Assembly (NCBI GenBank): GCA_037127795.1
Contig: JBAXXQ010000001.1
Coordinates: forward strand, 144,252 to 208,251
Source of the DNA: a bacterium
Lineage (GTDB): Bacteria > Patescibacteriota > Minisyncoccia > Phycocordibacterales > UBA9973
Reading direction: 5' to 3'
Length of the DNA stretch: 64,000 bases
Shown here: positions 2,612-51,260 of the stretch, in pieces
How the letters are laid out: every line of letters starts with the position of its first letter
Position numbering within the stretch: the stretch's first letter is position 1
Translations under genes and position numbers: made by a program
Notes under the pieces: model-generated
Databases searched by the model: none
What the model was told of the DNA's origin: nothing
What the model saw: only the letters and a program-made list of their open reading frames with translations

Positions 2612-3037
2612 ATGGCAAAAAATATTACAAAGAAAATTAAATTAATGGCAATGGGAGGGATGGCAACTCCAGCCCCACCACTAGGTCCCGCACTTGGACA
2701 AGCAGGGGTAAATATCTCTGATTTCGTACAAAAATTCAATGCTGCAACACAAGAGCAAAAAGGGGAACGAGTTGGAGTAAAGATTACTGTATACGAAGAT
2801 CGTACATATGATTTTCGTGTTACTACTCCTCCAACAACAGATCTTCTTTTGAAGGCTGCTGGTATTACCAAAGGTTCAGCAAAACCTCGCACATCAAAAG
2901 CAGGGAAGGTGACTCGTGAGCAAGTTCGTGCAATTGCAGAACGCAAAATGCCAGACCTCAATGCAAACGATATCGAAGCTGCAATGAAGATTGTAGAAGG
3001 TTCAGCTCGAAGTTCAGGTATCGAAGTTATTGGATAA
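2612..3037 (+). CDS. rplK: 50S ribosomal protein L11
   Basis: PAPPLGPALGQAGVNI and ITVYEDRTYDFRVTTPP motifs are diagnostic of L11. Confidence 0.95.
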   Translation: MAKNITKKIKLMAMGGMATPAPPLGPALGQAGVNISDFVQKFNAATQEQKGERVGVKITVYEDRTYDFRVTTPPTTDLLLKAAGITKGSAKPRTSKAGKVTREQVRAIAERKMPDLNANDIEAAMKIVEGSARSSGIEVIG

Positions 3038-3057
3038 ATAATTTCTCATACAAAAAG

Positions 3058-3092
3058 AAAAAGCCAATCAGGAAACTGATTGGCTTTTTTGT
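3058..3092 (+). terminator. Rho-independent terminator after rplK
   Basis: aaagccaatcaggaaactgattggcttttttg hairpin; no rplA follows, only a convergent minus-strand gene. Confidence 0.75.
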
Positions 3093-3093
3093 T

Positions 3094-3540
3094 TTACATA
3101 TACCTGTGTACCATATTTTCTGGTGTGATTGTATTCACTACAAATATGTTTTGAAAGACGAAGTTGTTTTTCAAAATTTCATATTGACTAGGTGGTACTA
3201 TAAAGCATATTTCTTTGTTTGTATTATCATCAAGACGTAACAATCCTTCAAATATTTTTGAAAAATGTATAACATAGGGTATTTCTCTACTATCAGAAAA
3301 AACACTTCCATAAGATACTTGTTCATTTTTACCATAAATATTTAAATCCTCAGTAATAACCTTTTTAAAAGATTTATACAGGTTATATTCCCAGATAAGA
3401 TTTTTTTCTACAAAGAAGTCTTTAAGATTTTTACTATGTGATAATTCCGCCGTATTATTTATTGGGTAATCTTTATTACCACTTACACCTAAAACAATTA
3501 GTACTACAAATTTATTCATAATTATTAATTTTTCAAACAT
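3094..3540 (-). CDS. hypothetical secreted protein
   Basis: ORF with a signal-peptide-like N-terminus (MNKFVVLIVLGVSG) when started at ATG 3540 or 3519; AT-rich, no known motifs. Confidence 0.4.
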   Translation of the reverse strand: MFEKLIIMNKFVVLIVLGVSGNKDYPINNTAELSHSKNLKDFFVEKNLIWEYNLYKSFKKVITEDLNIYGKNEQVSYGSVFSDSREIPYVIHFSKIFEGLLRLDDNTNKEICFIVPPSQYEILKNNFVFQNIFVVNTITPENMVHRYM

Positions 3541-3567
3541 TACCACAATAGGGGTTTTAATACAAAT

Positions 3568-3607
3568 AAAAAAGCGTAATATATATTTTGTATATATTAC
3601 GCTTTTT
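3568..3607. terminator. bidirectional terminator (perfect inverted repeat)
   Basis: aaaaagcgtaatatatattttgtatatattacgcttttt lies between the 3' end of dcd and the downstream gene. Confidence 0.7.
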
Positions 3608-3613
3608 AAGTTC

Positions 3614-4153
3614 TTAGTTTTTGAAATTTTTAAACATAAAACTTTCTTTAGGAAGATTCCCTTGGTTCGAATATTTCGCCCCATTTTTTTGTCCGTATTT
3701 TTGCTCTACTTCACCATCAACAGGGAAGTAGATCAGTTGCCCTATAGGCATACCTGCATAAATGCGGACGGGCATTTTACAAGAAAGCTCTAATGTCCAA
3801 TATCCACAAAAGCCTACATCACCTTTTCCTGCAGTTGCGTGGATATCAATACCTAATCTGCCAGTAGATGACTTACCTTCCAAGAAGGGGACATGCTCAT
3901 GTGTTTCTGTGTATTCTAGAGTTGCTCCTAAATAGAAACTACTTGGTTGTAGCACATATCCATCTTTTGGAATTTTAAAATGTTCGATTATGTTGTGTTT
4001 CTTTGCGTCCAACTCATTTGCTACATACATAGCTAAGTTTTCTGAAAGATGCACATCGTAAGAATTACTTCCCAAACATTCCTGCATATAAGGCTTGATA
4101 ATTATAGAGCCTTGTTTTATAGACTCCCATATTTTTTTGTCAGATAGTATCAT
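3614..4153 (-). CDS. dcd: dCTP deaminase
   Basis: Aligns along its length with E. coli Dcd (MILSDKKIWESIKQGSIIIKP; SSTGRLGIDIHATAGKGDVGFCGYWTLEL; KYSNQ); start set at the MILSD methionine. Confidence 0.85.
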   Translation of the reverse strand: MILSDKKIWESIKQGSIIIKPYMQECLGSNSYDVHLSENLAMYVANELDAKKHNIIEHFKIPKDGYVLQPSSFYLGATLEYTETHEHVPFLEGKSSTGRLGIDIHATAGKGDVGFCGYWTLELSCKMPVRIYAGMPIGQLIYFPVDGEVEQKYGQKNGAKYSNQGNLPKESFMFKNFKN

Positions 4154-4242
4154 AGTACAAATTTTTATTTGTTTGTATACTACACCATTCTCAAATTTTG
4201 ACAAGTAGTACATTTTTATGTAGTATCAGAAAAATTGTAAAT

Positions 4243-4698
4243 ATGAGAAAGGTAAAAATTTATGTAGGGTGCGCGTTAACACATGCACCAAATAGTTTTA
4301 AGCAGGTAATAGAAGAACTTAAGACTGTATTACGCAAACATGAAGATGTTGAACTTTTAGATTTTATCGATGGATCTGTAGAACCAAAAAATGGTTTGAG
4401 TATTGAATCTCAGATCTATTTTCATGATATTCACAACTGTGTCGAGAGGGCAGACCTTTTGATTACAGATGTTACATATCCATCTATTGGTCTTGGTTGG
4501 GAGTTAGGAGCGGCTGTAGAAAGATGTGGTACGCCGACAATTATGTGTGTTCAGGGTAACACACTTCTTTCAAGACTTCCTCGAGGAGCTGCACAACTTA
4601 GAGACTATGTTACATTGTATAAGTACAATGAATCTATTGTTGAAAAAGAGTGTATTGAATACTTATTTCAAAGAATAAAAATTCTTACTGGTAAATAA
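4243..4698 (+). CDS. nucleoside 2-deoxyribosyltransferase-like (NDT/DNPH1 fold) protein
   Basis: KIYVGCALTHAP and ADLLITDVTYPSIGLGWELGAAVERCGTPTI resemble the NDT motifs KIYFAGPLF and DxGTxxEIG; sits inside the dNMP gene cluster. Confidence 0.5.
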   Translation: MRKVKIYVGCALTHAPNSFKQVIEELKTVLRKHEDVELLDFIDGSVEPKNGLSIESQIYFHDIHNCVERADLLITDVTYPSIGLGWELGAAVERCGTPTIMCVQGNTLLSRLPRGAAQLRDYVTLYKYNESIVEKECIEYLFQRIKILTGK

Positions 4699-4699
4699 G

Positions 4700-4736
4700 A
4701 AAAGCCCGATACTACAAATTGTAGTATCGGGCTTTA
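4700..4736 (+). terminator. Rho-independent terminator
   Basis: aaaagcccgatactacaaattgtagtatcgggcttt hairpin. Confidence 0.7.
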
Positions 4737-4741
4737 TTGTT

Positions 4742-5266
4742 TTAAGATCTCGTATATTCAAAAATCTTAAAACTGTGAGAATTTTTTCTGCCCTTTAGGC
4801 ACTCTCTAATCATTTTCTTTTTCTTCCATTTTTCTTCGTCTAAGGGAAGAAAGAATTTTGTTCCATGGAATAACTCATTTATTTCTACTATAATAATCTT
4901 ATCTAGTAGAACAAATTTTTCTTCAAGGAACTGATTAAAGATATTTTCTCCTCCAATAATAAAAACTTTATTATGACCTTTTTGCTCAACACAAGAAAGA
5001 AGTTTCATAATAGAATCTTTATAAAAAACCCTCGCTCCTGGATCAGGAGCTTTTTGTTTGTGTCTTAATACAAACAGGTCTCTATCGGTAGAGGCCATGA
5101 ATTTCTGATTAATAACCTTACTTGTGTTTTTACCTATTACACAGGCATTATTTTTGGTAAGCTCGTTAAAGAACTCCATCTCTTCCTCGAGATGTATTTT
5201 TTTGAGTAACCCATCATTATCTATGATGTAATTACTTCCTCGAATGACATACAGTATTATTTCCAT
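4742..5266 (-). CDS. folA: dihydrofolate reductase (copy 1)
   Basis: DHFR fold signatures: IGKNTSKV..., VFIIGGENIFNQFL, HSFKIFEYTR. Confidence 0.8.
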   Translation of the reverse strand: MEIILYVIRGSNYIIDNDGLLKKIHLEEEMEFFNELTKNNACVIGKNTSKVINQKFMASTDRDLFVLRHKQKAPDPGARVFYKDSIMKLLSCVEQKGHNKVFIIGGENIFNQFLEEKFVLLDKIIIVEINELFHGTKFFLPLDEEKWKKKKMIRECLKGRKNSHSFKIFEYTRS

Positions 5267-5356
5267 GATGTATTTATTTGTTTGTATACTACATCTTTTT
5301 TATTTTTTAGCAAATTAACAAATAAAGCCCTTGAAAAATATTCCAAGGGCTTTTTA

Positions 5357-5887
5357 TTATTTTGTATATCTCACGATTTCAAAATCATGAGAATCTTTTT
5401 CGCTCTTATGTGTAAAAAGAAGTATTTCACGGTTTCTCCAAACACTTCTGTCTATTACAGGAAAGAAAGTGTCTCCTTCAAATTCCGCAGAAATCTCTGT
5501 TGCAATTATTTCGTCTATAGTGACTTCTTTTTCAAGTATTGCTTCAGAGTAAATCTCGCCACCGCCAATAATGAAGCATTTTGTGTGACCGGACGCTTCA
5601 GCAGCTTCTACTCCTTCTTTAAGAGATTTTCTTGTAAAGACTCTCTCGTGAGGGTCAACATTTTTTACCGTTCTTGATAAGACAATATTGTCTCTTCCTG
5701 GAAGGGGACGAACAAAGCGGGGTAGGGACATATATGTCTTCTTCCCCATAATTAACGCATGGCCAGATCCTTCAGTTGTTAATTCTTTAAAATTTTCTAA
5801 ATCTGTAGGAAGTTTCCATCCTGCTAATTTGCCATCTTTTCCGATAACCCAATTTTGCCCATAGGCAACAACAATAATTTTTTTCAT
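5357..5887 (-). CDS. folA: dihydrofolate reductase (copy 2, divergent paralog)
   Basis: KIIVVAYGQNWVIGKDGKLAGWKLPTDL, IMGKKTYMSL, CFIIGGGEIYSEAI, HDFEIVRYTK; adjacent to thyA. Confidence 0.8.
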   Translation of the reverse strand: MKKIIVVAYGQNWVIGKDGKLAGWKLPTDLENFKELTTEGSGHALIMGKKTYMSLPRFVRPLPGRDNIVLSRTVKNVDPHERVFTRKSLKEGVEAAEASGHTKCFIIGGGEIYSEAILEKEVTIDEIIATEISAEFEGDTFFPVIDRSVWRNREILLFTHKSEKDSHDFEIVRYTK

Positions 5888-5987
5888 TTTATAAAGTTTT
5901 ATTTGTTTGTATATTACACGGTTTTACTTTTTTTACAAGAAAAATCCCCCTACAAGACAAAGCGAGTAAGGGGATGTGTTTTTACTT

Positions 5988-6836
5988 TTATACAGCAATA
6001 GGAGCCTTTATCCCTGGGTGACACTGATAATTTTCAAGTGTAAAGTCTTCATATTTAAAAGAGAAGATATCTTTCACTTCAGGATTGATCTTTATTGTAG
6101 GGAGTGCAAAAGGCTCTCTACTAAGTTGTAGGTCAACCTGTTCAAAATGATTATTGTATATGTGCACATCTCCAAAAGAATGTACAAAATCACCATATTT
6201 CAGATCGCAAACTTGCGCAATCATCATTGTCAGTAATGCATAAGATGCAATATTGAAAGGTACTCCAAGAAAAACATCAGCACTGCGCTGATATAGCTGG
6301 CAACTTAGTTTACCATTGGCAACATAAAACTGAAATAAGCAGTGACACGGCATAAGTGCCATATGGGGCAAATCAGCAACATTCCATGCAGATACAATAA
6401 GTCTTCTACTGTCTGGTGTTTTTTTAATCATGTTGATCAAATCTGTTATTTGGTCAATTGATTGTTTCTGATAGCTTTCTGGAACCCATTCTTCTTTTTC
6501 ACCTCTGTGGCCAGGAATAAAAACAATATTGTCCCAACTTCGCCATTGCTTTCCATATACAGGACCAAGATTGCCGTTTTCATCAGCCCACTCGTCCCAG
6601 ATTTTTACACCATTATCGGTTAAAAATTTTGTATTTGTGTCTCCCTGAAGAAACCACAATAACTCATAAATAATTGATTTTAGGTGCATTTTTTTAGTTG
6701 TAATTAATGGAAACCCTTGATTGAGATCAAATCTCATCTGGTGTCCAAAAATACTCCTTGTTCCTGTGCCTGTACGGTCAGTCTTATCTGTACCGTTGTC
6801 TCTAATGTGCTGTAAAAGCTCATGATAAAGTTTCAT
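5988..6836 (-). CDS. thyA: thymidylate synthase (ThyA type)
   Basis: Near-identical to the E. coli ThyA core ([19 protein letters not shown]...[26 protein letters not shown]...[19 protein letters not shown]). Confidence 0.95.
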
Positions 6837-6949
6837 ACTTGTATAATTTAGTTAAAGAAAAATTTACCTGTAGATTACGCTTTTTTGAGTGTTTGTCAAT
6901 AATTAGTATTTTGTGCACTTCTATGGTTAAATTGAGAAAATTATTTGTT

Positions 6950-7645
6950 ATGAAAAAAAAGAAAAGAAGAGGCAATTTTTTTGTCATCGAAGGGGGTGAT
7001 GGTTGTGGTAAAAAAACACAAACTAAAATCCTTGTTGATTGGTTTAATGAAAATGGTCAACCAACAGAAACTATAGATTTTCCTCAGAGGTATGCTTTTT
7101 TTGGAAAACTTATTTATGAAGGGCTTGAAGACAATCTCTATGGAGACTTTGTTTCTTTGCACCCCAAAATCGCGTCAGTACTTTGGGCTGCAGATAGAGC
7201 TATCGCTGGGCCTAAACTTGAAGAGTGGTTATCTTCTGGGAAAAACATTGTAGCCGACAGGTATGTATCAGCAAATCAAATTCATCAAGGAGGAAAAATC
7301 CACGATGAAAAAGAAAGAAGAGAATTTTTGGCATGGCTTGATGAAATGGAGTTTGGTCAGTTTAAGATACCAAGACCAGATAAGGTGTTGTATCTTGATG
7401 TACCGTACGAGATTAGTCAGCGACTCATGCGTGAACGTCTTAAAAAAGGAGAAGCAAATCCTTTAAAAGATAAGCCTGATCAATACGAATCAAACATTCA
7501 ACATCAAGCAGATGCTCGAAGAAGTGCCGCTGGAATGTTGATAGAGAGTGGTTGGATTAAAATTCAATGCTCAGATGATGGTATTAATATGCTTTCTGTA
7601 GAAGATATTCATTTAAAAATCCGCAAAGAGCTTGGGTTACTTTAG
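6950..7645 (+). CDS. tmk: thymidylate kinase
   Basis: P-loop FFVIEGGDGCGKKTQ at the N-terminus, typical of Tmk; start set at the MKKKKRRG methionine. Confidence 0.85.
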   Translation: MKKKKRRGNFFVIEGGDGCGKKTQTKILVDWFNENGQPTETIDFPQRYAFFGKLIYEGLEDNLYGDFVSLHPKIASVLWAADRAIAGPKLEEWLSSGKNIVADRYVSANQIHQGGKIHDEKERREFLAWLDEMEFGQFKIPRPDKVLYLDVPYEISQRLMRERLKKGEANPLKDKPDQYESNIQHQADARRSAAGMLIESGWIKIQCSDDGINMLSVEDIHLKIRKELGLL

Positions 7646-7653
7646 GTTTCTAT

Positions 7654-7690
7654 AAAAAGGCTTGTATATTATGCAAGCCTTTTTCTTTTT
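7654..7690 (+). terminator. Rho-independent terminator
   Basis: aaaaaggcttgtatattatgcaagcctttttcttttt. Confidence 0.7.
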
Positions 7691-7713
7691 CAAATTAATG
7701 CTAGTATTACTAT

Positions 7714-9411
7714 ATGCAAGAAATACTTACACAATTACTCAATCAGGCAATAGGGGAGCTTTTTGGTATACAGGATGTGGCTTTTTCTGTAGAACACCCA
7801 AAGGAGTTTGTACATGGTGATTTTGCTACCAATGCGGCACTTTTGATTTCAAAACAAATTGGCAAAAATCCTATAGAAGTTGCGCTCGCACTTGTTGCGT
7901 ATCTCGAAAATCACAAAGGAGAATATATTGAAAAAGTTTCTGTTGCTGGTCCTGGTTTTATAAACTTTGTGTGCAACAGGGAAGTATTTCTCCGTATCGT
8001 ACAAGGTATATTGGATGCGCCACAAGACTGGGGAAAAAATAATATGCATGAAGCAGAAAAAATTCTCCTCGAGCACTCAAGTCCAAATCTTTTTAAACCA
8101 TTTCATATAGGACATGTAATGAACAACACCATAGGAGAGGCGATCAAACGTCTTGCTGTGTATTCTGGTGCAGAGGTGTCTACTATCTCATATCCATCTG
8201 ATGTATCGCTCGGTATTGGCAAAGCTGTATGGTTTTTGCTTCATGACGAAGGAGTACAAAAAATTTCTGATGCGCCGTACCTTTCAAGTGAGCAGCTCAA
8301 CTATCTCGGAGATTGTTATGTGCAAGGGACACGCGCATATGAGTCTGATGAAAATATACAAAAAGAAGTGCGTGCAATTACTAAATGTATTTATGACAAA
8401 ACACCTGGCCCAGAATACGATGCATATCTTTTGGGAAGAGAAATTTCTCTCGCATATTTCAAAAATGTAGTCGCACGACTCGGCTCACAATTTGATGATT
8501 TTATTTTTGAAAGTGAAGCTGCAGTAGAAGGGGAAAAGCTAGTACGCCAACACACTGATATATTTACTCAAAGCGACGGTGCCTTTATTTATGCAGGAGA
8601 GCAAGACGGTCTACATACGAGAGTTTTTATAAACAAAGAAGGGTACCCAACATATGAAGCAAAAGATGTCGGGCTTTTGGCGCTCAAGTTTGCACGCTTT
8701 GTTCCTCAGATAAGTATCTTTATTACAGATCATGAGCAGACAGAATATTTTAAAGTAGTTGCAAGTGCTGCGGGGAAAATCCACAAGCAGTGGCAAGATA
8801 GTACTATCCATCGCACACATGGGCGAATGAGCTTCAAGGGGCAAAAAATGTCTTCACGACTTGGTGGGGTCCCTGTTGCACAAGAAGTACTCGATGCTAT
8901 CACCGAAGAGGTTCGCGAACGCGATAGTAGTTTGCCAAAACAAACACAAGATATGATTGCAATTGCAGCGCTCAAGTTTGTTATCTTGCGTACTATGGCA
9001 GGACGAAATATAAACTTTGATCCAGAGACATCGCTTTCTTTTGAAGGGGATAGTGGCCCATATCTGCAATACACTGCAGTCCGCGCGGGAGCGCTCATTG
9101 CAAAAGCGGGACATCAACACCTTGTACCAAAGCTTATGAAAACCCCACTCGAAGATACAGAGCTTTTGGAAAAAGTATTGGCACGATTTACCGAAGTTGT
9201 TGCGCATACTACAGAAGAATGGGCACCGCACTATATAGTGACCTATCTCCTCGAGCTCGCACAAGCATTCAATAGTTGGTATGGACAAACAAAGATTATT
9301 GATGAAGATGCAACACTCTCTATGCACCGCCTCGCTATCGCACAAGCAGTACAGATTACTATCATAAACGGCCTTTGGGTTCTCGGTATCGAAGTTCCAG
9401 AAAAGATGTAG
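7714..9411 (+). CDS. argS: arginine--tRNA ligase
   Basis: Arg_tRNA_synt_N-like N-terminus, HIGH motif PFHIGHVMN, C-terminal DALR-type anticodon-binding region. Confidence 0.9.
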   Translation: MQEILTQLLNQAIGELFGIQDVAFSVEHPKEFVHGDFATNAALLISKQIGKNPIEVALALVAYLENHKGEYIEKVSVAGPGFINFVCNREVFLRIVQGILDAPQDWGKNNMHEAEKILLEHSSPNLFKPFHIGHVMNNTIGEAIKRLAVYSGAEVSTISYPSDVSLGIGKAVWFLLHDEGVQKISDAPYLSSEQLNYLGDCYVQGTRAYESDENIQKEVRAITKCIYDKTPGPEYDAYLLGREISLAYFKNVVARLGSQFDDFIFESEAAVEGEKLVRQHTDIFTQSDGAFIYAGEQDGLHTRVFINKEGYPTYEAKDVGLLALKFARFVPQISIFITDHEQTEYFKVVASAAGKIHKQWQDSTIHRTHGRMSFKGQKMSSRLGGVPVAQEVLDAITEEVRERDSSLPKQTQDMIAIAALKFVILRTMAGRNINFDPETSLSFEGDSGPYLQYTAVRAGALIAKAGHQHLVPKLMKTPLEDTELLEKVLARFTEVVAHTTEEWAPHYIVTYLLELAQAFNSWYGQTKIIDEDATLSMHRLAIAQAVQITIINGLWVLGIEVPEKM

Positions 9412-9472: not shown

Positions 9473-9949
9473 ATGATACACGAAAAAGAAGAGCAATCAC
9501 TTATTATTATTAAACCGGACGCAGTACAACGTAACTTGATAGGTAAGGTTATTACTCGTTTTGAAGAAAAAGGTCTCAAAATTATTGGGCTAAAAATGGT
9601 GTATTTGAAAGACGCTATTGTAGAAGAACACTATGCACACATTGCAGATAAACCATTTTTTCCTGGTATTAAGAAATTTATGCAATCAGCTCCTGTGGTA
9701 ATTATTGCTGTTGCCGGTATTCGTGCAGTAGATGCTATCCGTATTATCGTAGGTCCTACAAAAGGTTTTGATGCGACAGCGGGGACTATCCGAGGGGACT
9801 ATTCACTTTCTACACAATCAAATATCGTGCACGCATCTGATTCTACAGAAAGTGCAAAAATAGAGATTGCGCGCTTCTTTGATGACAAAGAATTGCTTGA
9901 CTACGACAAGGTAGATACAAAATTTATTTTCGCTGATGACTTGCTATAA
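9473..9949 (+). CDS. ndk: nucleoside diphosphate kinase
   Basis: LIIIKPDAVQRNLIGKVITRFEEKGLKIIGLKMV and the active-site segment NIVHASDS. Confidence 0.95.
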   Translation: MIHEKEEQSLIIIKPDAVQRNLIGKVITRFEEKGLKIIGLKMVYLKDAIVEEHYAHIADKPFFPGIKKFMQSAPVVIIAVAGIRAVDAIRIIVGPTKGFDATAGTIRGDYSLSTQSNIVHASDSTESAKIEIARFFDDKELLDYDKVDTKFIFADDLL

Positions 9950-11650: not shown

Positions 11651-12271
11651 ATGACAATAGGAGACAAGGATATTTTGGAAGTAGAAAAGCACGGACACAA
11701 TAAAATCAAGATCGGTGTATCTGGTGCCGCAGAAACAGGGCATTGCGGAGTAGATGCATTGGATAAGGCAAAAGCTCTTGGTGCAGAAATTGTAAAACAA
11801 GGTGCAGTGTTGGTGACTGGTGCAACAACAGGGTTTCCTTTGTGGTCATGTATGGGTGCAAAAGAAGCGCATGGTATTTCTATCGGGCTTTCTCCTGCAC
11901 AAAATGAACGCGACCATGTAGAGAACTGGCGTCTTCCTATTGATTATATGGATCTTATTATTTATACAGGGTTTGGTTTCCCGGGAAGAGATCTTTTGTT
12001 TACTCGTAGTTGTGATGCAGTACTTATCGGATGTGGCCGTATCGGGACATTTCATGAATTCACTATTGCATTCGAAGATGGTAAGCCGGTAGGGGTACTC
12101 GAAGGATCTTGGACAGCTGCTGATCAAATAAAAGAAATGATTGAAAAAAGTGGTAGACCAGGGGATAAGGTTATTTTTGATAATGACCCAGCAAAGCTCG
12201 TTGCTCGTATTTTGAAAATGGTAGAAGAAGACAAGCAAAAAATCAGAACCGAAGCGCCACAAGTAAAATAG
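11651..12271 (+). CDS. LOG / TIGR00725-family Rossmann-fold protein
   Basis: GCGRIGTFHEF matches the LOG PGGxGTxxE motif; about 200 aa. Confidence 0.55.
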   Translation: MTIGDKDILEVEKHGHNKIKIGVSGAAETGHCGVDALDKAKALGAEIVKQGAVLVTGATTGFPLWSCMGAKEAHGISIGLSPAQNERDHVENWRLPIDYMDLIIYTGFGFPGRDLLFTRSCDAVLIGCGRIGTFHEFTIAFEDGKPVGVLEGSWTAADQIKEMIEKSGRPGDKVIFDNDPAKLVARILKMVEEDKQKIRTEAPQVK

Positions 12272-15716: not shown

Positions 15717-18700
15717 ATGTCAGAAAACACCAATAATCAAAAATCAGCAGCAGCACTTCGAGAAGAAAAAGTTCTCGAGTTTTGGAATAGTCAAAATATT
15801 TTTGAAAAATCTTTAGATAAAAATAAAGATGGCGCAGAGTTTGTATTTTATGAAGGACCACCGACAGCAAATGCAAAGCCAGCGCTTCACCACCTCGAAG
15901 CACGAGCATTCAAGGATACACTACCTCGCTACAAGACAATGCAAGGATTTCATGTGCGCCGCAAAGCTGGATGGGATACGCATGGTCTCCCGGTAGAATT
16001 GCAGATTGAGAAAAAACTTGGATTGCAATCTAAAAAAGATATTGAAACATTTGGTGTTGCAAAATTTAATGCAGAGTGTAAAGAAAGCGTGCACGAATAT
16101 ATTGGTACCTGGCAAAATTTTACAGAGCGCATGGGGTATTGGGTGGATTTTGAGGATGCGTACTATACGTACAATCCGCAATATATGGAGTCGCTTTGGA
16201 GTATTGTAAAAAAAATTTCTGACCGTGGGCTTTTGTACAAAGACTATCGTATTGTGCCGTGGTGTGCACGATGTGGTACTGGGCTTTCAAGTCATGAGCT
16301 TGCGCAAGGGTATGAAGATGTAAAAGATCTTTCTGTGACAGCTAAATTTAGATTGGTAGGAGAAGAAAATGTGTATATTCTTGCGTGGACAACAACACCA
16401 TGGACCCTTCCAGGAAATGTTGCACTTGCAGTGGGGGAAGATATTACGTATGTACAAATAAAAAAGGATACAGAATTTTTGATCCTTGCAAAAGAACGTC
16501 TCAGTATTATAGAAGGGGAATATGAAATAATAAAAGAAATTACAGGATCTGATCTTGCAGGACTTTCATATGAACCGTTGTATAAAATAGATAATATAGA
16601 GCATGCATACAAGATACAGGTTGCAGATTTTGTAACTACTACAGATGGTACCGGTATTGTGCATATTGCGCCTATGTATGGAGCAGACGACTTTGGTCTT
16701 GCAACAAAAAATAATTTACCAAAAGTACACACCGTGGATGATAGTGGTCACTTTATTGCAAGTATGACACCAGAATTTTTACAAGCGCGTTTTGTAAAAA
16801 CAGAAGATGTTGCAATTGATATTATCAAAGATCTTGCACATAGAGGATTACTTTTCAAAAAAGAAAAATACGAGCACTCATACCCACATTGTTGGCGTTG
16901 CAAAACTCCGCTTATTTATTACGCGCGTGATTCTTGGTATGTGCGTATGTCGAGTCTTCGTGATGATTTGATTAAAGCAAATGAAGGTATCAATTGGAAT
17001 CCAAACCATATCCAAGATGGTCGTTTTGGTGAATGGATTCGTGAAGTAAAAGACTGGGCATTTTCTCGAGAGCGATACTGGGGTACACCGCTTCCTGTAT
17101 GGACCAATGCAAACAATGAATTGCTTGTGGTGGATTCTATAGACACCCTCAAGTCATATACAAAAAAGTCTGGCAATGAATACTTCCTTATGCGACACGG
17201 AGAAACTATTCACAATGTTGCAGGAACATGGAATTGTAATATAGATAACCCAGATGCACTCACTGATGCAGGGGTACAAGGTATCGTGCAATCAATCAAA
17301 AATAGTGGACAATCATTTGATATGATCATTGCGTCACCATTTTTGCGCACACAAAAAACTGCACAAATAGTGGCGAGCGAGCTCGGTATGGCGCAAGACG
17401 TGATACTTTCTGATGCGCGTATTGCAGAGTGGAATGTAGGTGCAGAGTTTGATGGTATGCCTATGGAAGAATATTTTTCTATTCGCAATGCACACACAGA
17501 TAGATATGAATACAAAGTTGCAGACGGGGAATCATATGCTGATGTTGTAAGACGTACTGGAGAATTTTTGTATGAAATAGAACAAAAATACGCTGGTAAA
17601 AAAATCTTGATTGTATCTCATGGTGCACCACTTCGCGCATTGGAGCTTCACACTAAAGGAATTTCTTTTGAAAGTCTATTCAAAGACAGTCGTGAATATA
17701 GGAATTTTGATAATGCAGAAATTCGTCATATCGATTTTACTCCATTACCACACAGTGAAAAATATGAAATTGATTTGCACCGCCCATATATAGATAGTGT
17801 ATCTTTGATAAAAGATGGTGTGGAATACAATCGTGTCAAAGAGGTGATGGATGTGTGGTTTGATAGTGGTGCTATGCCGTTTGCACAAGAGCATTTTCCA
17901 TTCAATCAAAATATATTATATCCAGCTGATTTTATTTCAGAAGCTATCGACCAGACTCGAGGATGGTTTTATACATTGCTTGCGGTGGGGACACTCATGG
18001 AGCGGGGAAGCCCTTATAAAAATGTAATTTGTCTTGGGCACTTGCTCGACAAGGACGGCAAAAAAATGTCTAAGTCTATAGGTAATATCGTAGAACCGTT
18101 TGAGCAAATGGAAAAGTTTGGTGTAGATGCAGTACGATTTTGGATGTATAGTGTGAACCAGCCAGGAGAGAGTAAAAACTACGATGAAAAAAGTGTTGCA
18201 GAAATACAAAACAAAGTATTCTCTCTTACTTACAATGTACTTTCATTTTATGAAATGTATCGTGATCAAAATCTTGAAAAAGATCTCACTGTTGAAACAC
18301 TCAATACAGATAATGTGCTCGATGATTGGATTATTACCAAGCTCAATATACTCGTAAGTAGTATGACAGAGGATTTAGATAATTTTGAATTGTTCCGCCC
18401 AACGCGCGCTATAAAAGATTTTATCGATGATCTTTCTACATGGTATGTTCGTCGTTCACGAGACAGACTCAGAGATAATGATGTTGATGCAAAAAAGGCT
18501 TTGTATGTAGTTCTCAAAACACTCGCACAGCTCTTTGCACCATTTGCACCATTTACCGCAGAAGATCTTTGGCAAAAATTGAAAACTGAAAAAGACGAAC
18601 TATCTGTACATTTGTCTGTATGGCCAAAAGCGGGAAGTGTAGATATTGCTGTAATAGAAGAAATGGAAAAAGTCCGAACTGTATGTACAGAAGGAAATGC

Positions 18701-19070
18701 GCTACGTAAAAAAATAGGGATCGCTGTTAAGCAACCACTCGCAAGCTTCAGTATGTCGCATGATGGTTTGCAAAAGTATTACACACTTATACAAGATGAG
18801 CTCAATGTAAAAGCTATATTAGTTGGTGACTTTGCGCTTGATACAACTATTACTCCAGAGCTCAAGCGAGAAGGGGAATATCGCGAGCTTGTACGTAGTG
18901 TGCAAGATTTGCGTAAAGAAAAAGGACTTCTTCCAGGTGATATTATTTCACTCTCTATTACTCAGACTATGCACGACACTATTGCAGACATAGAGATATT
19001 CAAAAAAACTGTCCAAGCAGAGAGTGTTCTTGTGGGTGAGGAATTGAGCTTGGAGATAAAAGAGAAATAG
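15717..19070 (+). CDS. ileS: isoleucine--tRNA ligase (type-2-like) with an embedded histidine-phosphatase domain
   Basis: Class I motifs (degenerate HIGH region PPTANAKPALHHLE; KMSKS), CP1 editing, WFDSGAMPFAQ and an anticodon-binding C-terminus; an extra ~190-aa PGAM-family domain (LMRHGET...IVSHGAPLRAL) lies between RERYWGTPLPVW and DLHRPYID. Confidence 0.95.
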   Translation: MSENTNNQKSAAALREEKVLEFWNSQNIFEKSLDKNKDGAEFVFYEGPPTANAKPALHHLEARAFKDTLPRYKTMQGFHVRRKAGWDTHGLPVELQIEKKLGLQSKKDIETFGVAKFNAECKESVHEYIGTWQNFTERMGYWVDFEDAYYTYNPQYMESLWSIVKKISDRGLLYKDYRIVPWCARCGTGLSSHELAQGYEDVKDLSVTAKFRLVGEENVYILAWTTTPWTLPGNVALAVGEDITYVQIKKDTEFLILAKERLSIIEGEYEIIKEITGSDLAGLSYEPLYKIDNIEHAYKIQVADFVTTTDGTGIVHIAPMYGADDFGLATKNNLPKVHTVDDSGHFIASMTPEFLQARFVKTEDVAIDIIKDLAHRGLLFKKEKYEHSYPHCWRCKTPLIYYARDSWYVRMSSLRDDLIKANEGINWNPNHIQDGRFGEWIREVKDWAFSRERYWGTPLPVWTNANNELLVVDSIDTLKSYTKKSGNEYFLMRHGETIHNVAGTWNCNIDNPDALTDAGVQGIVQSIKNSGQSFDMIIASPFLRTQKTAQIVASELGMAQDVILSDARIAEWNVGAEFDGMPMEEYFSIRNAHTDRYEYKVADGESYADVVRRTGEFLYEIEQKYAGKKILIVSHGAPLRALELHTKGISFESLFKDSREYRNFDNAEIRHIDFTPLPHSEKYEIDLHRPYIDSVSLIKDGVEYNRVKEVMDVWFDSGAMPFAQEHFPFNQNILYPADFISEAIDQTRGWFYTLLAVGTLMERGSPYKNVICLGHLLDKDGKKMSKSIGNIVEPFEQMEKFGVDAVRFWMYSVNQPGESKNYDEKSVAEIQNKVFSLTYNVLSFYEMYRDQNLEKDLTVETLNTDNVLDDWIITKLNILVSSMTEDLDNFELFRPTRAIKDFIDDLSTWYVRRSRDRLRDNDVDAKKALYVVLKTLAQLFAPFAPFTAEDLWQKLKTEKDELSVHLSVWPKAGSVDIAVIEEMEKVRTVCTEGNALRKKIGIAVKQPLASFSMSHDGLQKYYTLIQDELNVKAILVGDFALDTTITPELKREGEYRELVRSVQDLRKEKGLLPGDIISLSITQTMHDTIADIEIFKKTVQAESVLVGEELSLEIKEK
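17184..17759 (+). other. in-frame histidine phosphatase (phosphoglycerate-mutase family) domain inserted in ileS
   Basis: RHGE motif with catalytic His (FLMRHGETIHNV) and second catalytic His in IVSHGAPLRAL; no stops or frame change; it sits where type-2 IleRS has its Cys4 zinc knuckle, and no cysteines remain here. Confidence 0.75.
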
Positions 19071-47240: not shown

Positions 47241-47997
47241 AGTCCCACTTATGAGTAATACGAAAAACAAGCGTTCAAAACAGGGGTAACCCCGCAAGAG
47301 AATCTTGTGGCCGCCCCCAAAAAGGGCGGTTTTCGTATCACAATTAAGAATATGTCTTTTGACAAAAAAATCCTGTCACTTAGTGGAAACTCTTTAATAA
47401 GGGGGACTGCAGGTAATAAGTAGACAGACCTTCTGAAAACACTCCAAGTGGTTGGAGAAGTAGGAAGTAAAATTGATTTCTAGATTTCCTAATAGGAAAT
47501 AAGAGCATATGGTGGATGCCTAGGTTCTACATGGCGATGAAAGACGCAGTACGGCGAGCGATACGCTTCGGGGAGGTGCCTAACAACCTTTGATCCGGAG
47601 ATTTCTGAATGAGGAAACTCTATCAAGTAAACCTTGATAACTACTCTGCATAAGACAGACTAGAGCGCACCCAGGGAAGTGAAACATCTCAGTACCTGGA
47701 GGAAAAGAAAAAAATGTGGTGTATACCACAACATTCCCCGAGTAGCGGCGAGCGAAAAGGGAGGAGCCCAAACCTCTATCTTCGGATAGGGGGGTTGTAG
47801 GATAGAAACGTCGTTTTACGGAAAGAGTGAAAAAATTTGTGTATAGAAAAAGTTGTTGGAAACCAACGTCATAGCAGGTGATAGCCCTGTATTCGAAATG
47901 CACTTATCTCTTTTGTTTCTATTCCTGAGTACTTCAAGACATGAATAGCTTGAAGGAATCCGCCAGAACTAACTGGTAAGGCTAAATACATTGTAGA

Positions 47998-48037
<40 letters not shown>

Positions 48038-49491
48038 AACTCCGAGAGGAGGGTGAAATAGTACTGAAACCATATGCTTACAAGGAGTCGGAGCGGTTGC
48101 TTGCAACCGTCACGGCGTGCCTATTGAAGAATGAGCCAACGAGTTTATATATGTTGCAAGGCTAAGTGCAAAATGCATGGAGCCGAAGCGAAAGCGAGTG
48201 TGAAAAGCGCGTCCACTTAAGTGTGGGAAGTATCATGTATAAGACCCGAAGCCAGGTGAGCTACCCATGAGCAGGGTGAAGTGATTCGAAAGAATCATGG
48301 AGGCCCGAACCGGTTTGTCGTACAACGCATTCGGATGACTTGTGGGTTGGAGTGAAAAGCTTATCGAACCTGGTAATAGCTGGTTCTCTCCGAAATAGCT
48401 TTAGGGTTAGCGTCATGTGTTCCCCTTGGGGGTAGAGCACTGGAAAGTTTCGACAGGGAGCAATCTCGCGAAATTTATCAAACTCCGAATACCAAGGATT
48501 AAAAACATGGCAGTTAGACTACGGGGGCTAAGCTCCGTCAGTCAAAAGGGAAACAGCCCAGATCTCTAGTTAAGGTCCCTAAATATAGACTAAGTGCAAA
48601 CGAAGGATGTGAGATTTCTTCGACAATGAGGAAGTTGGCTTAGAAGCAGCCATCTTTTAAAGAAAGCGTAACAGCTCACTCATCAAGAGATCTTGCGCCG
48701 TAGATAATCGGGGCTAAGTCTATTACCGAAACTGAGGGCCCGACTAGAAGAAGAGCGGTAAGCAATAGCTTGCCACCCTCCTTCTGGTCGGGCGGTAGGA
48801 GAGTATTCGTATCTGCTGTGAAGGCGAAGGCGTGAGCCGTGCTGGAGCGTTACGAAGTAAGAATGTTGGCACAAGTAACCACAAGGAAGGTGAGATCCCT
48901 TCCCGCCGAAAAACCAAGGTTTCCAAAGCAACGATGATCGTCTTTGGGTTAGTCGGGTCCTAAGCTGATAGCGAATGCTGCAGGCGATGGACATAAGGTT
49001 AATATTCCTTAACTTCTTTCATATTCGATGGAGGGACGGAGTGTAGTACATACTGCAGATAATTGGATTTCTGTTTGTATACCGCGTATGGAGGATAGGT
49101 AAATCCGTTCTCCTGACTTTAATGTCACTATCAGGTATGCATCGTCATCTGGTACGCCAGATTAAGAGTATGGAGCACGCTTCCAAGAAAAGCTTCTAAG
49201 ATTAGTATGAGAGAACCCGTACCGCAAACCGACACAGGTGGTTAGGTCGAGAAGACCAAGGCGAACGAGTGAGAGATCCCCAAGGAACTCGGCAAAAAAG
49301 CAGCCGTAACTTCGGGATAAGGCTTGCCGGCAGAAATGTCGGCCGCAGCGAAAGTATTCCTGGCAACTGTTTATCAAAAACACAGCTCCCTGCGAACACG
49401 AAAGTGGATGTATAGGGGGTGACACCTGACCAATGCCAGAAGGTTAATTACGGATGGTGCGATTATATCAAGCTGATCTGTACAAGCCCTG

Positions 49492-49526
<35 letters not shown>

Positions 49527-49734
49527 TCTGTTTTTCAATTTCGATTGGAAGGCAGAACGGACTAGGACCGCGTATAGAAAACGATAAACAATTTAAAAGA
49601 ATAATCATTACATTTCAAGCTACCTAACATGTCGTAATACATGTTTAGTCCATTGTGATTAACGAGAGACCAACGTCACAGACCCGAACTCGCAAGAGAG
49701 GGTTAAGAGAGAGTCCAACTGAGAGGAATAGTTG
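49527..49734 (+). ncRNA. intervening sequence in 23S at E. coli position L1931 (putative small group I intron, no ORF)
   Basis: Exon reads ...ggtcctaaggU | insert | AGCGAAATTCCTTGTCGGGTAAGTTCCGAC...; the 5' exon ends in U and the insert ends in G (ttG), as expected for group I splicing; L1931 is a known intron homing site. Confidence 0.55.
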
Positions 49735-50395
49735 AGCGAAATTCCTTGTCGGGTAAGTTCCGACGCGCACGAATGGTGTAATGACTGGGAAACTGTCTCG
49801 GGGATTTGCTCGGTGAAAATACAGTACCGGTGAAGATGCCGGTTACCTGCAGTTAGACGAAAAGACCCCGGAAGCTTTACTACAGTTTGGTATTGGGTAT
49901 ATTTGTTTGTTACGTAGCATAGGAGGGAGACTTTGAAGCGCGCATTTCGGTCCGCGTGGAGTCGTCAGTGAAATACCTCTTTTCAAATGGATATATCCTA
50001 ACCACTACGGAAAAAACGCAGTGGGACAGTGCCTGATGGGTAGTTTTACTGGGGCGGTATCCTCCAAAAGAGTAACGGAGGAGTTCAAAGGTTAGCTAGG
50101 CGCGAATGGAAACCGTGCCGATAGTGCAATGGCATAAGCTAGCTTGACTGTAAGTCGGCCATGACGAGCAGGTGCGAAAGCAGAACATAGTGAACCGACA
50201 ATTCGCATTAGATGCGGTTGAAGATTAACGGATAGAAGCTACTCCGGGGATAACAGGCTAGTTCCGCCTAAGCGTCCATAGCGACGGCGGAGTTCGGCAC
50301 CTCGATGTCGGCTCACCTTATCCTGGGGCTGGAGAAGGTCCCAAAGGTTTGGCTGTTCGCCAATTAAAAAGGTACGCGAGCTGGGTTCAGACCGT

Positions 50396-50770
50396 CTAGG
50401 AATTAGAAAAGTGTGCAATTTTATTGTACTTCAAATCTGATTTCTAGATCGTCTGAATCCCGAGGAGAGTGAAAAAGAAAGAAAATTACAAAGATTTATT
50501 AAACATTATGTTTTAGTCTTTTCGTCTAATATAAGTAAAGTTCATATACAGGAGTATATGAAAGAAAGATAGAATAAAGAGAACCATCTTAATACGGCGG
50601 TCGTCTATGGTGACATAGAATGACATGCTCGACTGATATCGGTGAAACCCCCACAGGGGGGTAATACCGAGGGAACTATAGCAATATAGACCCGTAGAGA
50701 CTACACGTTGAGGTGCTTAGAAATAAGTACAAGATATAGTCCGATCCATACAGTAATGTGTGAAAAGATG
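50396..50770 (+). ncRNA. intervening sequence in 23S at E. coli position L2593 (putative group I intron, no ORF)
   Basis: Exon ...gagctgggttcagaccgU | 375-nt insert ending ...aaagatG | CGTAAGACAGGTTGG...; the AT-rich 5' half and GC-richer 3' half contain no ORF. Confidence 0.55.
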
Positions 50771-51147
50771 CGTAAGACAGGTTGGTCTCCTATCTACTGC
50801 AGGCGTTGATGATTGAGGAAGTTCGTTCCTAGTACGAGAGGACCGGAATGAACGAACCTCTGGTGTATGGGCTCTACCGCCAGGTGGATTGCCCAGTAGC
50901 TATGTTCGGAATGGATAACCTCTGAAAGCATCTAAGAGGGAAGCCAGTTCCAAGATTAGTCATCGTTGAGGGCCGTGAGAGATGATCACGTTGATAGGCA
51001 CTATGTGGAAGCGCAGTAATGTGTTAAGCAGAGGTGTACTAATTGCCCAATTCCTATTAGGAAATCTGGAAATCAACCCATTCGCAAGAATGGTTCAGAA
51101 AATTAGATTGTAGTGTATACTACAATCGCAAACACATTTGAGTGCTT

Positions 51148-51260
<113 letters not shown>

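Follow-up and report, generated by a model that had tools for sequence, protein, structure and literature searches.

Why does a gene resembling that of the eukaryotic nucleotide hydrolase DNPH1 lie among the thymidylate genes of a patescibacterial genome, and why are two unlike genes for dihydrofolate reductase (DHFR) found beside it? Both questions are raised by a 64,000-nucleotide stretch of contig JBAXXQ010000001.1 (assembly GCA_037127795.1, positions 144,252 to 208,251; Patescibacteriota, Minisyncoccia, Phycocordibacterales, UBA9973), referred to below as the window. Open reading frame (ORF) listings and hidden Markov model (HMM) scans place six genes between positions 3614 and 7645: dcd, the DNPH1-like gene, two DHFR genes, thyA, and tmk. 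A first-pass annotation of this DNA had drawn the same set together within 4 kb, with a nucleoside deoxyribosyltransferase (NDT)/DNPH1-fold gene among them, and all six are recovered at or near the positions it gave. Most of nucleotide biosynthesis is missing from Patescibacteria, which presumably live by salvage; how they keep their deoxynucleoside triphosphate (dNTP) pool clean and balanced is, to our knowledge, poorly known.

The island formed by dcd, thyA, folA, tmk, and ndk is positioned downstream of secE-nusG-rplK, and its clustering is not a matter of chance, because the same island recurs after secE-nusG-rplK in many Patescibacteria loci. These pathway genes are ordinary, textbook ones. 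On balance, and with restrained confidence, the locus is read here as a thymidylate island of a Patescibacteria-type genome in which the known pathway is joined by an uncharacterized, conserved accessory enzyme. That accessory would be the DNPH1-like protein, to judge from its sequence and its neighbors. What is new is a DNPH1-like family in bacteria whose base-side residues are altered and whose link to thymidylate synthase is conserved, together with a polymorphic DHFR slot that carries a strain-specific, remodeled second DHFR.

The DNPH1-like gene and thymidylate synthesis

The gene at 4243-4698 (+ strand) encodes a protein of 151 amino acids (MEI6022388.1, listed in GenBank as hypothetical) that phmmer, a family profile, and Foldseek searches with an AlphaFold2 (AF2) model all place nearest to DNPH1/Rcl in sequence and predicted fold. 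Phmmer against the Protein Data Bank (PDB) returns only DNPH1/Rcl (rat Rcl 4fyh, E 2.4e-8), and a profile built from 16 family sequences scores Rcl at 42.7 bits versus 21 bits for the classical NDT 1f8x and 20 bits for BcmB. The AF2 model, with a predicted local distance difference test (pLDDT) score of 91.5, finds DNPH1/Rcl in all of the top 35 PDB chains (E down to 2e-7, template modeling (TM) score 0.6-0.8), followed by BcmB, MilB, and the designed phosphodeoxyribosyltransferase 4hx9. The earlier NDT/DNPH1-fold call holds at the level of the fold, where Foldseek points to DNPH1/Rcl, but not at the threshold of the Pfam NDT family PF05014 (20.1 bits against 28.8), a model matched weakly (E < 0.01) by 7 of 16 relatives. 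No match was returned by NCBIfam or PHROG, and a phage origin, tried as an explanation, was set aside on the PHROG result. Comparison with the gene in the closest relative, locus L033, gives a ratio of nonsynonymous to synonymous substitution rates (dN/dS) of 0.13.

In human DNPH1, Tyr24, Asp80, and Glu104 form the catalytic triad, Ser98 and Ser128' of the partner subunit bind the 5'-phosphate, Glu55 activates water for the second step, Arg30 recognizes the base, and His56 stabilizes the leaving group (PMC10603095). Residues Y7, D62, S81, G83, G85, and E87 of the window protein align with human Y24, D80, S98, G100, G102, and E104 and are invariant in the 16 relatives. The triad persists in a wider set of 56 sequences derived from the sampled loci (Y7 and D62 in 56/56, E87 in 55/56), as do the phosphate-binding serines, with S81 in 51/56 and S or T at position 110 in 52/56; the latter belongs to a conserved segment, (S/T)RLxxG, that stands opposite LSAMIRG of DNPH1 in the alignment. 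Position 40 is Asp or Glu in 43/56 and Asp in the window protein, in an alignment that here consists of MAFFT and predicted secondary structure only. Family members also share an N-terminal loop, GC(A/S)LTHA, with an invariant Cys. The DNPH1-type Tyr has been cited as the residue that excludes ribonucleotides (PMC12884076).

The first-pass annotation had proposed either deoxynucleoside base exchange or N-glycosidase salvage at the level of the 2'-deoxynucleoside 5'-monophosphate (dNMP). The first option is unlikely in its classical NDT form, because the phosphate-binding serines are present and the best matches are DNPH1, BcmB, and MilB. The second fares better: for a DNPH1-like protein that retains these serines, the substrate should be a dNMP, and dNMP N-glycosidase chemistry is judged likely.

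The genomic setting of the family bears on its role. At least 612 clusters at 90 % identity belong to it; those named by their sources are called "hypothetical protein", come mostly from Patescibacteria, and for the most part have no Pfam match, and a literature search found no description of the family or of its link to thymidylate synthase. Loci were sampled from a genome collection with one genome per GTDB species (22 loci), from metagenomes (37 loci), and, for a few, by exact-protein look-up, and neighbors were annotated by phmmer with the proteins of the window and its relatives as references. At about 27 of 59 distinct loci, a gene for ThyA or ThyX, DHFR, dCTP deaminase (dcd) or dCMP deaminase, Tmk, or serine hydroxymethyltransferase (SHMT) lies within 3 kb of the DNPH1-like gene, and ThyA or ThyX is encoded within 7 kb in 13 of the 22 genome-collection loci.

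The linked loci fall into at least eight gene orders. With X standing for the DNPH1-like gene, the window and L033 have rplK-dcd-X-DHFR-ThyA-Tmk, and two further loci have rplK-X-DHFR-dcd-ThyA-SHMT (L012, L014). Four carry X-dCMP deaminase-DHFR-ThyA, with deaminase and DHFR in variable order (L001, L017, L021, L027). Further arrangements include rplK-X-ThyX-dcd-Tmk-SHMT (L007), whose X-ThyX pair is also present on L034, L037, and L038, ThyA-X-DHFR with overlapping genes in a metagenome-assembled genome labeled Limnocylindrales (L025), dcd-ThyX-X (L029, L030), and DHFR-F420-ligase-X-ThyA-Tmk-SHMT (L024). Outside the rplK context the genes overlap or nearly abut, as in ThyA-DNPH1L-DHFR (L025) and ThyX-DNPH1L (L029, L030). 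The closest homologue outside the species, P0004, is 56 % identical to the window protein and adjoins ThyX.

This pattern suggests that the DNPH1-like gene is functionally linked to thymidylate synthesis. Its partners are swapped for non-orthologous equivalents, ThyA plus DHFR or ThyX on one hand and dcd or dCMP deaminase on the other, and because the neighbors are replaced in this way while the DNPH1-like gene stays, the pattern favors a functional connection with the nucleotides of thymidylate synthesis (dUMP, dTMP, dCMP) over one with folate.

Some of the sampled loci have features of their own. L019 carries a thymidine-kinase-like ORF (5750-6169), identified by visual inspection of its N-terminal P-loop sequence, 0.8 kb upstream of the family gene; this locus has no adjacent thymidylate synthase, and its ThyX is 5.4 kb away. 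Between rplK and the DNPH1-like gene, two loci carry a RibD_C-type reductase of the DHFR family together with an F420-ligase (CofE-like) gene (L001 2137-5821; L024 5373-6955), accompanied in L001 by an ATP-grasp gene and two unknown ORFs. This group could be a module that modifies a pterin or the folate tail.

What might the enzyme do? A DNPH1-type protein would bind a dNMP, with Tyr7 keeping ribonucleotides out and the phosphate held by Ser81 and by Ser110 of the partner subunit. Attack of Glu87 on C1' would release the base and leave a covalent deoxyribose-5-phosphate (dR5P)-enzyme intermediate, with Asp40, which aligns with the water-activating Glu55 of DNPH1, serving in the second step. 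Because an acidic residue stands at the Glu55 position, a hydrolase that sanitizes or trims the pool is the likeliest assignment, and one put forward tentatively. Such an enzyme would remove unwanted dNMPs from the pool that feeds ThyA or ThyX and Tmk; possible targets are 5-modified dUMP or dCMP, arising from salvaged DNA or from side reactions, and dNMPs in surplus. Its neighbors are enzymes that would generate aberrant pyrimidine dNMPs or hand them on. One source would be deaminases that act on modified deoxycytidine nucleotides, and hydroxymethyl-dUMP, a side product of thymidylate synthases, is a second possible one.

The same covalent intermediate could instead be resolved by a free base, which would make the protein a natural dR5P transferase. 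Base exchange at the dNMP level, for instance between uracil or thymine and a surplus dNMP, would then yield dUMP or dTMP and supply ThyA or ThyX and Tmk in an organism living on salvaged DNA. A precedent exists in phage DmtZ, a DNPH1-like enzyme of the NDT family for which dAMP hydrolysis and dR5P transfer onto a base have both been demonstrated (PMC12884076). The presence of 4hx9 among the Foldseek matches and the adjacency of the gene to enzymes that consume dUMP and dTMP also fit such an activity, as does an invariant, bulky Phe41 that the alignment puts at DNPH1 His56, next to the water-excluding Pro site of transferases. What makes a transferase unlikely is the acidic residue at the water-activating Glu55 position in 43/56 members, which favors hydrolysis, together with the fact that dcd or dCMP deaminase already gives the island access to dUMP and that no acceptor-base site can be inferred.

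Hydrolysis could also serve general catabolism, with dNMPs broken down to bases and dR5P and the gene found near thymidylate synthase merely through gene order inherited after nusG-rplK. The rplK context is common to many of the linked loci, about half of the family members occur in unrelated contexts, and Rcl itself was reportedly first described, by Ghiorghi et al. in 2007, as a broad dNMP N-glycosidase. The linkage nevertheless holds outside the rplK context in L023, L024, L025, L029, and L030, it survives both the shuffling of gene order and the non-orthologous replacement of neighbors, and in L025 the gene overlaps ThyA and DHFR; an unselective catabolic role is consequently rated as improbable, a little more so than the transferase.

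The accessory hydrolase favored here must itself be set against several observations that count the other way. The motif YVGC[AS]LTHA served to retrieve the loci, so its conservation among them is circular. Roughly half of the family loci have no thymidylate neighbor; many of the contigs are short, and several nonetheless offer 6-7 kb of flank. The linkage may in part be inherited synteny within Patescibacteria, as much of the sample is phylogenetically related. At the active site, the base-recognizing Arg30 of DNPH1 is lost, with T13/H14 at the aligned positions, and the leaving-group His56 is replaced by an invariant Phe41. With Arg30 and His56 absent, the base specificity is predicted to differ from that of DNPH1: the sequence lends no support to specificity of the hydroxymethyl-dUMP type, and loss of the leaving-group His would speak, if anything, against a uracil-type substrate. 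Among the 56 sequences, members linked to thymidylate synthase and unlinked members show no difference in active-site residues.

A conserved, hitherto unannotated DNPH1-like enzyme with a physical tie to either type of thymidylate synthase is a concrete candidate for dNTP-pool upkeep in Patescibacteria, and the family extends that of the human nucleotide-pool sanitizer into bacteria. A broader and distinctly speculative possibility is that a DNPH1-like dR5P transferase or selective dNMP nucleosidase forms, with a cytosine deaminase and thymidylate synthase, a module that rebalances the pool. Deaminase and synthase would turn deoxycytidine into thymidine nucleotides while the DNPH1-like enzyme exchanged or removed the base on other dNMPs, so that surplus or modified dNMPs from foreign DNA, often richer in GC or modified, would be converted or discarded to match the AT-rich genome of the cell. 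The enzyme would then be the first cellular counterpart of DmtZ.

The DHFR slot

Two DHFR genes follow on the minus strand, one divergent (4742-5266, 174 amino acids, MEI6022389.1; PF00186 65.2 bits, cutoff 25) and one canonical, folA (5357-5887, 176 amino acids, MEI6022390.1; PF00186 134.4 bits). They are only 35 % identical, in line with the first-pass description of them as clearly different. The canonical enzyme keeps A7, G15, W22, D27, F31, G43, T46, R57, G95-G97, Y100, and T113; of the key positions examined, only Ala21, where the consensus is Pro, is neither the consensus residue nor a common variant. The divergent copy retains E27 as its catalytic acid along with F31, T35, G43, T46, R57, I94, G95, and G96, so that the pseudo-paralogue considered as a possibility in the first-pass annotation, lacking the acid and the NADPH-binding residues, is not what is found: the catalytic Glu and the core NADPH glycine motifs are in place. 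Eight to ten invariant or near-invariant residues are replaced relative to 133 homologues. I5Y, A7I, P21K, W22I, M42I, R52M, L54S, and T113V each occur in 0/133 of these and G15D and S63R in 0.8 % each, and the changes are concentrated on the pterin and p-aminobenzoyl-glutamate side. The AF2 model of the divergent copy has a pLDDT of 90, and its top Foldseek matches are all DHFRs (TM ~0.8).

How did one genome come to hold both? Its closest relative, L033, is nearly identical around the slot (NusG 100 %, RplK 99 %, ArgS 96 %, Tmk and the DNPH1-like protein 91 %, ThyA 87 %) and has a single DHFR there, 48 % identical to the canonical copy and 41 % to the divergent one. The window and L033 lose DNA homology at 4744 and regain it at 5877, and synonymous sites of the DHFR genes are saturated (proportion of synonymous differences, pS, 0.74-0.81), compared with dS of 0.14-0.69 in neighboring genes. 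In L035, a more distant relative (NusG 93 %), the syntenic DHFR is 57 % identical to the canonical copy. A neighbor-joining (NJ) tree with 500 bootstraps joins the canonical copy to L035 (93 %) and the divergent copy to L033 (63 %), with the two window copies together in only 1 %; a first NJ run on 136 sequences, in which long-branch attraction determined the position of the divergent copy, was discarded. In an exhaustive search of 1.84 billion representatives, the best match of the divergent DHFR is its canonical neighbor (96.8 bits), the best external match scoring 80.3.

These identities, homology breaks, saturated sites, and NJ groupings among the window, L033, and L035 show a slot in which deeply divergent DHFR alleles are exchanged among close relatives, and of which the window genome holds two. 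A simple or recent tandem duplication of folA was rejected, on the NJ groupings, in which the divergent copy joins the L033 DHFR weakly, and on the saturation of synonymous sites; the two adjacent genes reported in the first-pass annotation are there, in series, but on the NJ groupings (93 % and 63 %) they are not a simple tandem duplication. Because the closest relative holds a single, different allele, the duplicated folA is strain-specific and not a feature of the lineage. The second DHFR may therefore be best described as a strain-specific extra allele in a slot undergoing allele replacement.

The same data invite the suspicion that two strain alleles of one slot were joined in series during assembly. 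In favor of this are a metagenome-assembled source, polymorphism of the slot among relatives, and similar promoter sequences ahead of both copies. Such an artefact is unlikely, since the sequences at the junctions do not repeat exactly: beyond a short core the promoters are alike only in part, the terminators differ, and there is no long exact repeat at which to mis-join. The protein is moreover recorded in NCBI, ENA, and Logan on two contigs, and in L005, from another sample, a DHFR of the divergent type lies next to the same downstream terminator. Taken together, misassembly is regarded as very improbable.

Thymidylate synthase behaves similarly within the clade. The ThyA of L035 (3-941) is only 39 % identical to that of the window, as against 93 % for NusG and 88 % for RplK, and because of this gap its alleles, like those of DHFR, are taken to be exchanged within the clade. 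A dS of 1.65 between the window and L033 for dcd likewise stands well above that of its neighbors.

What the remodeled copy does is a separate matter. A pseudogene was rejected on the intact frame, a dN/dS of 0.14, and the gene's own promoter and terminator, and orthology with a DHFR_1/RibD_C gene of L001 was rejected on 22 % identity, the RibD_C features of the latter, and its F420-ligase and ATP-grasp neighbors. The divergent DHFR is under purifying selection, and with a slot-promoter copy of its own it is apparently expressed. It is fairly probable that it still acts on some pterin or folate; with its folate-side pocket remodeled, it would be expected to be a reductase whose activity on dihydrofolate is changed or strongly lowered, and not a redundant FolA.

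Selection by natural or synthetic antifolates could account both for a variable slot and for a working isozyme whose pocket is insensitive to them. The catalytic acid is kept as Glu, and D27E is typical of many plasmid Dfr enzymes; F31, R57, and the NADPH motifs are also kept, the best structural match is the trimethoprim-resistant soil DHFR 8f09, and three deeply divergent alleles occupy one slot in close relatives. The folA genes of the candidate phyla radiation (CPR) are functional, as shown by complementation of an E. coli delta-folA strain (PMC11974145), and thyA-folA synteny is well known. Resistance models nonetheless speak otherwise: the trimethoprim-resistant Dfr models of NCBIfam give at best 53.7 bits for the divergent copy and 100.3 for the canonical one, where the cutoffs are 325-360 (no resistance model above 54 bits for the divergent copy, all cutoffs being at least 300). 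The top Foldseek E-values, moreover, barely differ between resistant and sensitive DHFRs, and the pterin and p-aminobenzoyl-glutamate contacts I5, A7, W22, R52, L54, and T113 are replaced by residues seen in 0/133 homologues. An antifolate-insensitive isozyme is on these grounds possible but doubtful.

Somewhat more doubtful still is that the copy is redundant and heading for loss, or a pseudo-enzyme, made dispensable once the canonical allele arrived. Its terminal branch in the NJ tree is 3.7 times that of the DHFR of its nearest relative, L033, many invariant residues are gone, and L033 does without a second copy, all of which would be expected of a gene on its way out. Set against these are the dN/dS of 0.14 (128 codons), the intact frame of 174 codons, the confidently predicted fold (pLDDT 90), and a full promoter copy and terminator of its own.

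Three limits apply to the account of the divergent copy as a selected, remodeled reductase. Only one close relative was found among the 1.84 billion representatives, an 84 % identical homologue on the 520-bp contig L005, and it lacks the N-terminal 46 codons, in place of which stands unrelated AT-rich sequence with stops in all frames and with no homologue among the sequences compared. Either the gene has decayed in the lineage of L005 or this short contig is a chimera. The dN/dS value was obtained from this pair and spans only the 128 codons they share.

The slot has wider implications. It shows that folA can be swapped or doubled between near-identical genomes through cassettes with conserved promoters and terminators, a point of interest for the movement of antifolate-target genes.

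Promoters, terminators, and pathway genes

The island is laid out, on sequence features, as independent promoter-gene-terminator cassettes. Promoter-like sites for dcd and the DNPH1-like gene lie back to back at 4154-4242 (both strands), with TTGACA-17-TAGTAT on the plus strand (4198-4226, 10/12 matches) and TTGTCA-16-TAGTAT on the minus strand (4204-4177). A bidirectional intrinsic terminator at 4701-4735, with a 16-bp stem and T-runs on both strands, would serve the convergent DNPH1-like and divergent DHFR genes, and it is conserved downstream of the divergent DHFR homologue in L005. The promoter and leader of the divergent DHFR (5267-5330, - strand) are a copy of the DHFR-slot promoter, aligning over ~50 nt with the sequences that precede the canonical DHFR, dcd, and the L033 DHFR. 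A predicted intrinsic terminator at 5324-5353 (- strand; 13-bp stem and T-run, 4 nt past the stop of the canonical DHFR) separates the two DHFR transcription units. The slot promoter and leader proper, at 5888-5951 (- strand), are conserved in L033 even though the coding sequence differs, and a further terminator is predicted after tmk at 7654-7684.

At the center of these promoters is a 16-nt motif, TATACAAACAAATAAA, that occurs exactly three times in the window versus 0.04 expected (4164-4179, 5273-5288, and 5898-5913, all on the minus strand), 11-12 nt upstream of the starts of dcd, the divergent DHFR, and the canonical DHFR. L033 has it upstream of its single DHFR (7042-7056). Similarity around the motif extends over ~50 nt and covers the whole promoter. 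A promoter shared by dcd and both DHFR genes suggests co-regulation, and the region could be a common regulatory element or, through short homologies, a handle for cassette recombination. Comparison of the core with the NrdR box gave no convincing match. Island genes (3000-8000) have no recognizable Shine-Dalgarno sequence in the 25 nt upstream of their starts, and their leaders are rich in A, T, and C.

The pathway genes are assigned by homology. The dcd gene (3614-4153, - strand) encodes a protein that scores 123.7 bits against Pfam DCD and passes the dCTP deaminase equivalog cutoff (TIGR02274, 112.7 against 92.8); its ATG at 4153 agrees with the 177-residue call in L033. Its best solved relatives are 2qxx/4a6a/2qlp (79.5 bits), presumably M. 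tuberculosis Dcd:Dut entries, ahead of 1ogh (63.7 bits) and of 1xs1 (52 bits), which we take to be the monofunctional E. coli Dcd. The structure entry 1ogh is the dUMP-forming enzyme of M. jannaschii. The window Dcd is probably of the bifunctional, dUMP-forming type. Ahead of dcd, between it and the rplK terminator, a 527-bp insertion of 25 % GC (3092-3618) is absent from L033; it contains an ORFan, within the minus-strand ORF 3094-3684, that has no match in Pfam, NCBIfam, or PHROG.

The thyA gene (5988-6836, - strand) encodes a canonical thymidylate synthase (PF00303 418 bits; NF002497 472.8 against a cutoff of 327), whose translation includes PCH with the catalytic Cys and PFNIASY with the uracil-specifying Asn. 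The dTMP kinase gene, tmk (6950-7645, + strand), is supported by PF02223 (57.9 bits, cutoff 27) and by P-loop and DRY motifs and falls below the cutoffs of the NCBIfam equivalogs (96 bits versus 193; 61 versus 83). Translated from 6950 it is 231 amino acids long, as in L033, and 91 % identical to that protein; 6950 is probably the true start, the TTG at 6839 being too far upstream. The nucleoside-diphosphate kinase gene, ndk (9473-9949, + strand; PF00334 167 bits, NF001908 177.4 against 155), lies 1.83 kb past tmk with argS between, close to the 1.8 kb of the first-pass annotation. Within the 64-kb window no gene was assignable to dut, thyX, glyA, tdk, or dCMP deaminase.

By homology, Dcd would convert dCTP to dUMP or dUTP, ThyA would methylate dUMP to dTMP, the canonical DHFR would recycle dihydrofolate, and Tmk and then Ndk, at the last step, would carry dTMP to dTTP. 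The gene calls and the dCTP-to-dTTP logic of the first-pass annotation are sound.

Around the island, the window is housekeeping DNA of a typical Patescibacteria-like kind, with secE-nusG-rplK, many aminoacyl-tRNA synthetase genes, recA, ftsK, and secDF. Seven kilobases from the DNPH1-like gene lies a second gene of the SLOG superfamily (11651-12271, + strand; SLOG cluster4 / TIGR00725, LOG-like). A class I aminoacyl-tRNA synthetase of 1117 amino acids (15717-19070, + strand), similar to isoleucyl-tRNA synthetase (IleRS), has a PF00300 histidine-phosphatase domain (residues 490-675, 97 bits) that splits the halves of its catalytic domain. The 23S rRNA gene (47489-51062, + strand) is 3574 nt long versus a model of 2925 nt, which implies ~650 nt of insertions; a 5S rRNA gene follows at 51151-51259, and no 16S rRNA gene lies upstream within the window.

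Comparison with known systems

Two of the comparisons concern the pathway genes and the DHFRs. The bifunctional dCTP deaminase:dUTPases of M. tuberculosis and M. jannaschii are closer in similarity score to the window Dcd than 1xs1, presumed to be monofunctional. With known FolA and Dfr enzymes and thyA-folA pairs, the island shares an ordinary FolA adjoining thyA and a second copy with the DHFR fold; it differs in that the second copy has pocket substitutions found in none of the 133 homologues, matches no Dfr resistance family, and is known from one lineage only.

For the DNPH1-like protein, the nearest system in sequence, profile, and fold is DNPH1/Rcl, the eukaryotic 2'-deoxynucleoside 5'-phosphate N-hydrolase, also described as 5-hydroxymethyl-dUMP N-hydrolase. 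The Tyr/Asp/Glu triad, the PS-x-G-x-G-x-E-x-G motif, both phosphate-binding Ser, the (S/T)R(L)xxG of the helical extension, and an acidic residue at the Glu55 position are common to both. Identity, however, is only ~21-25 %, the DNPH1 loop GSIRGG is GC(A/S)LTHA with its invariant Cys in the window family, Arg30 is missing and His56 has become an invariant Phe, and the window family is bacterial and genomically tied to thymidylate synthase.

Classical NDTs (PF05014) belong to the same superfamily and share the GLGxELG nucleophile motif. They are set apart by the sub-threshold Pfam score of the window protein, by the family profile (21 bits for 1f8x against 42.7 for Rcl), and by Ser81, which stands where NDT has a 5'-OH-binding residue that we take to be Asp.

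MilB and BcmB, N-glycosidases of CMP and hydroxymethyl-CMP, have the same fold (Foldseek E 1e-4 to 5e-4) and likewise act on nucleotides, and their genes stand beside those of ThyA-family pyrimidine hydroxymethylases. They are, in contrast, ribo-specific and belong to antibiotic pathways; they carry Phe in place of the Tyr that is invariant in the window family, whose neighbor is a canonical dUMP-methylating ThyA, or ThyX. A hydroxymethyl-pyrimidine pathway of the MilA/MilB kind was rejected for the island on the same grounds, ThyA being canonical and the link holding with ThyX as well.

Phage DmtZ, the dAMP hydrolase and deoxyribose-5-phosphate transferase, likewise has a DNPH1-like fold, is encoded beside dNTP-pool enzymes, acts on a dNMP, and uses a Tyr/(Asp or Asn)/Glu triad (Nucleic Acids Research 2026, PMC12884076). 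By its published description, DmtZ has Asn in its triad and a transferase-type Pro57, where the window family has Asp62 and Phe41.

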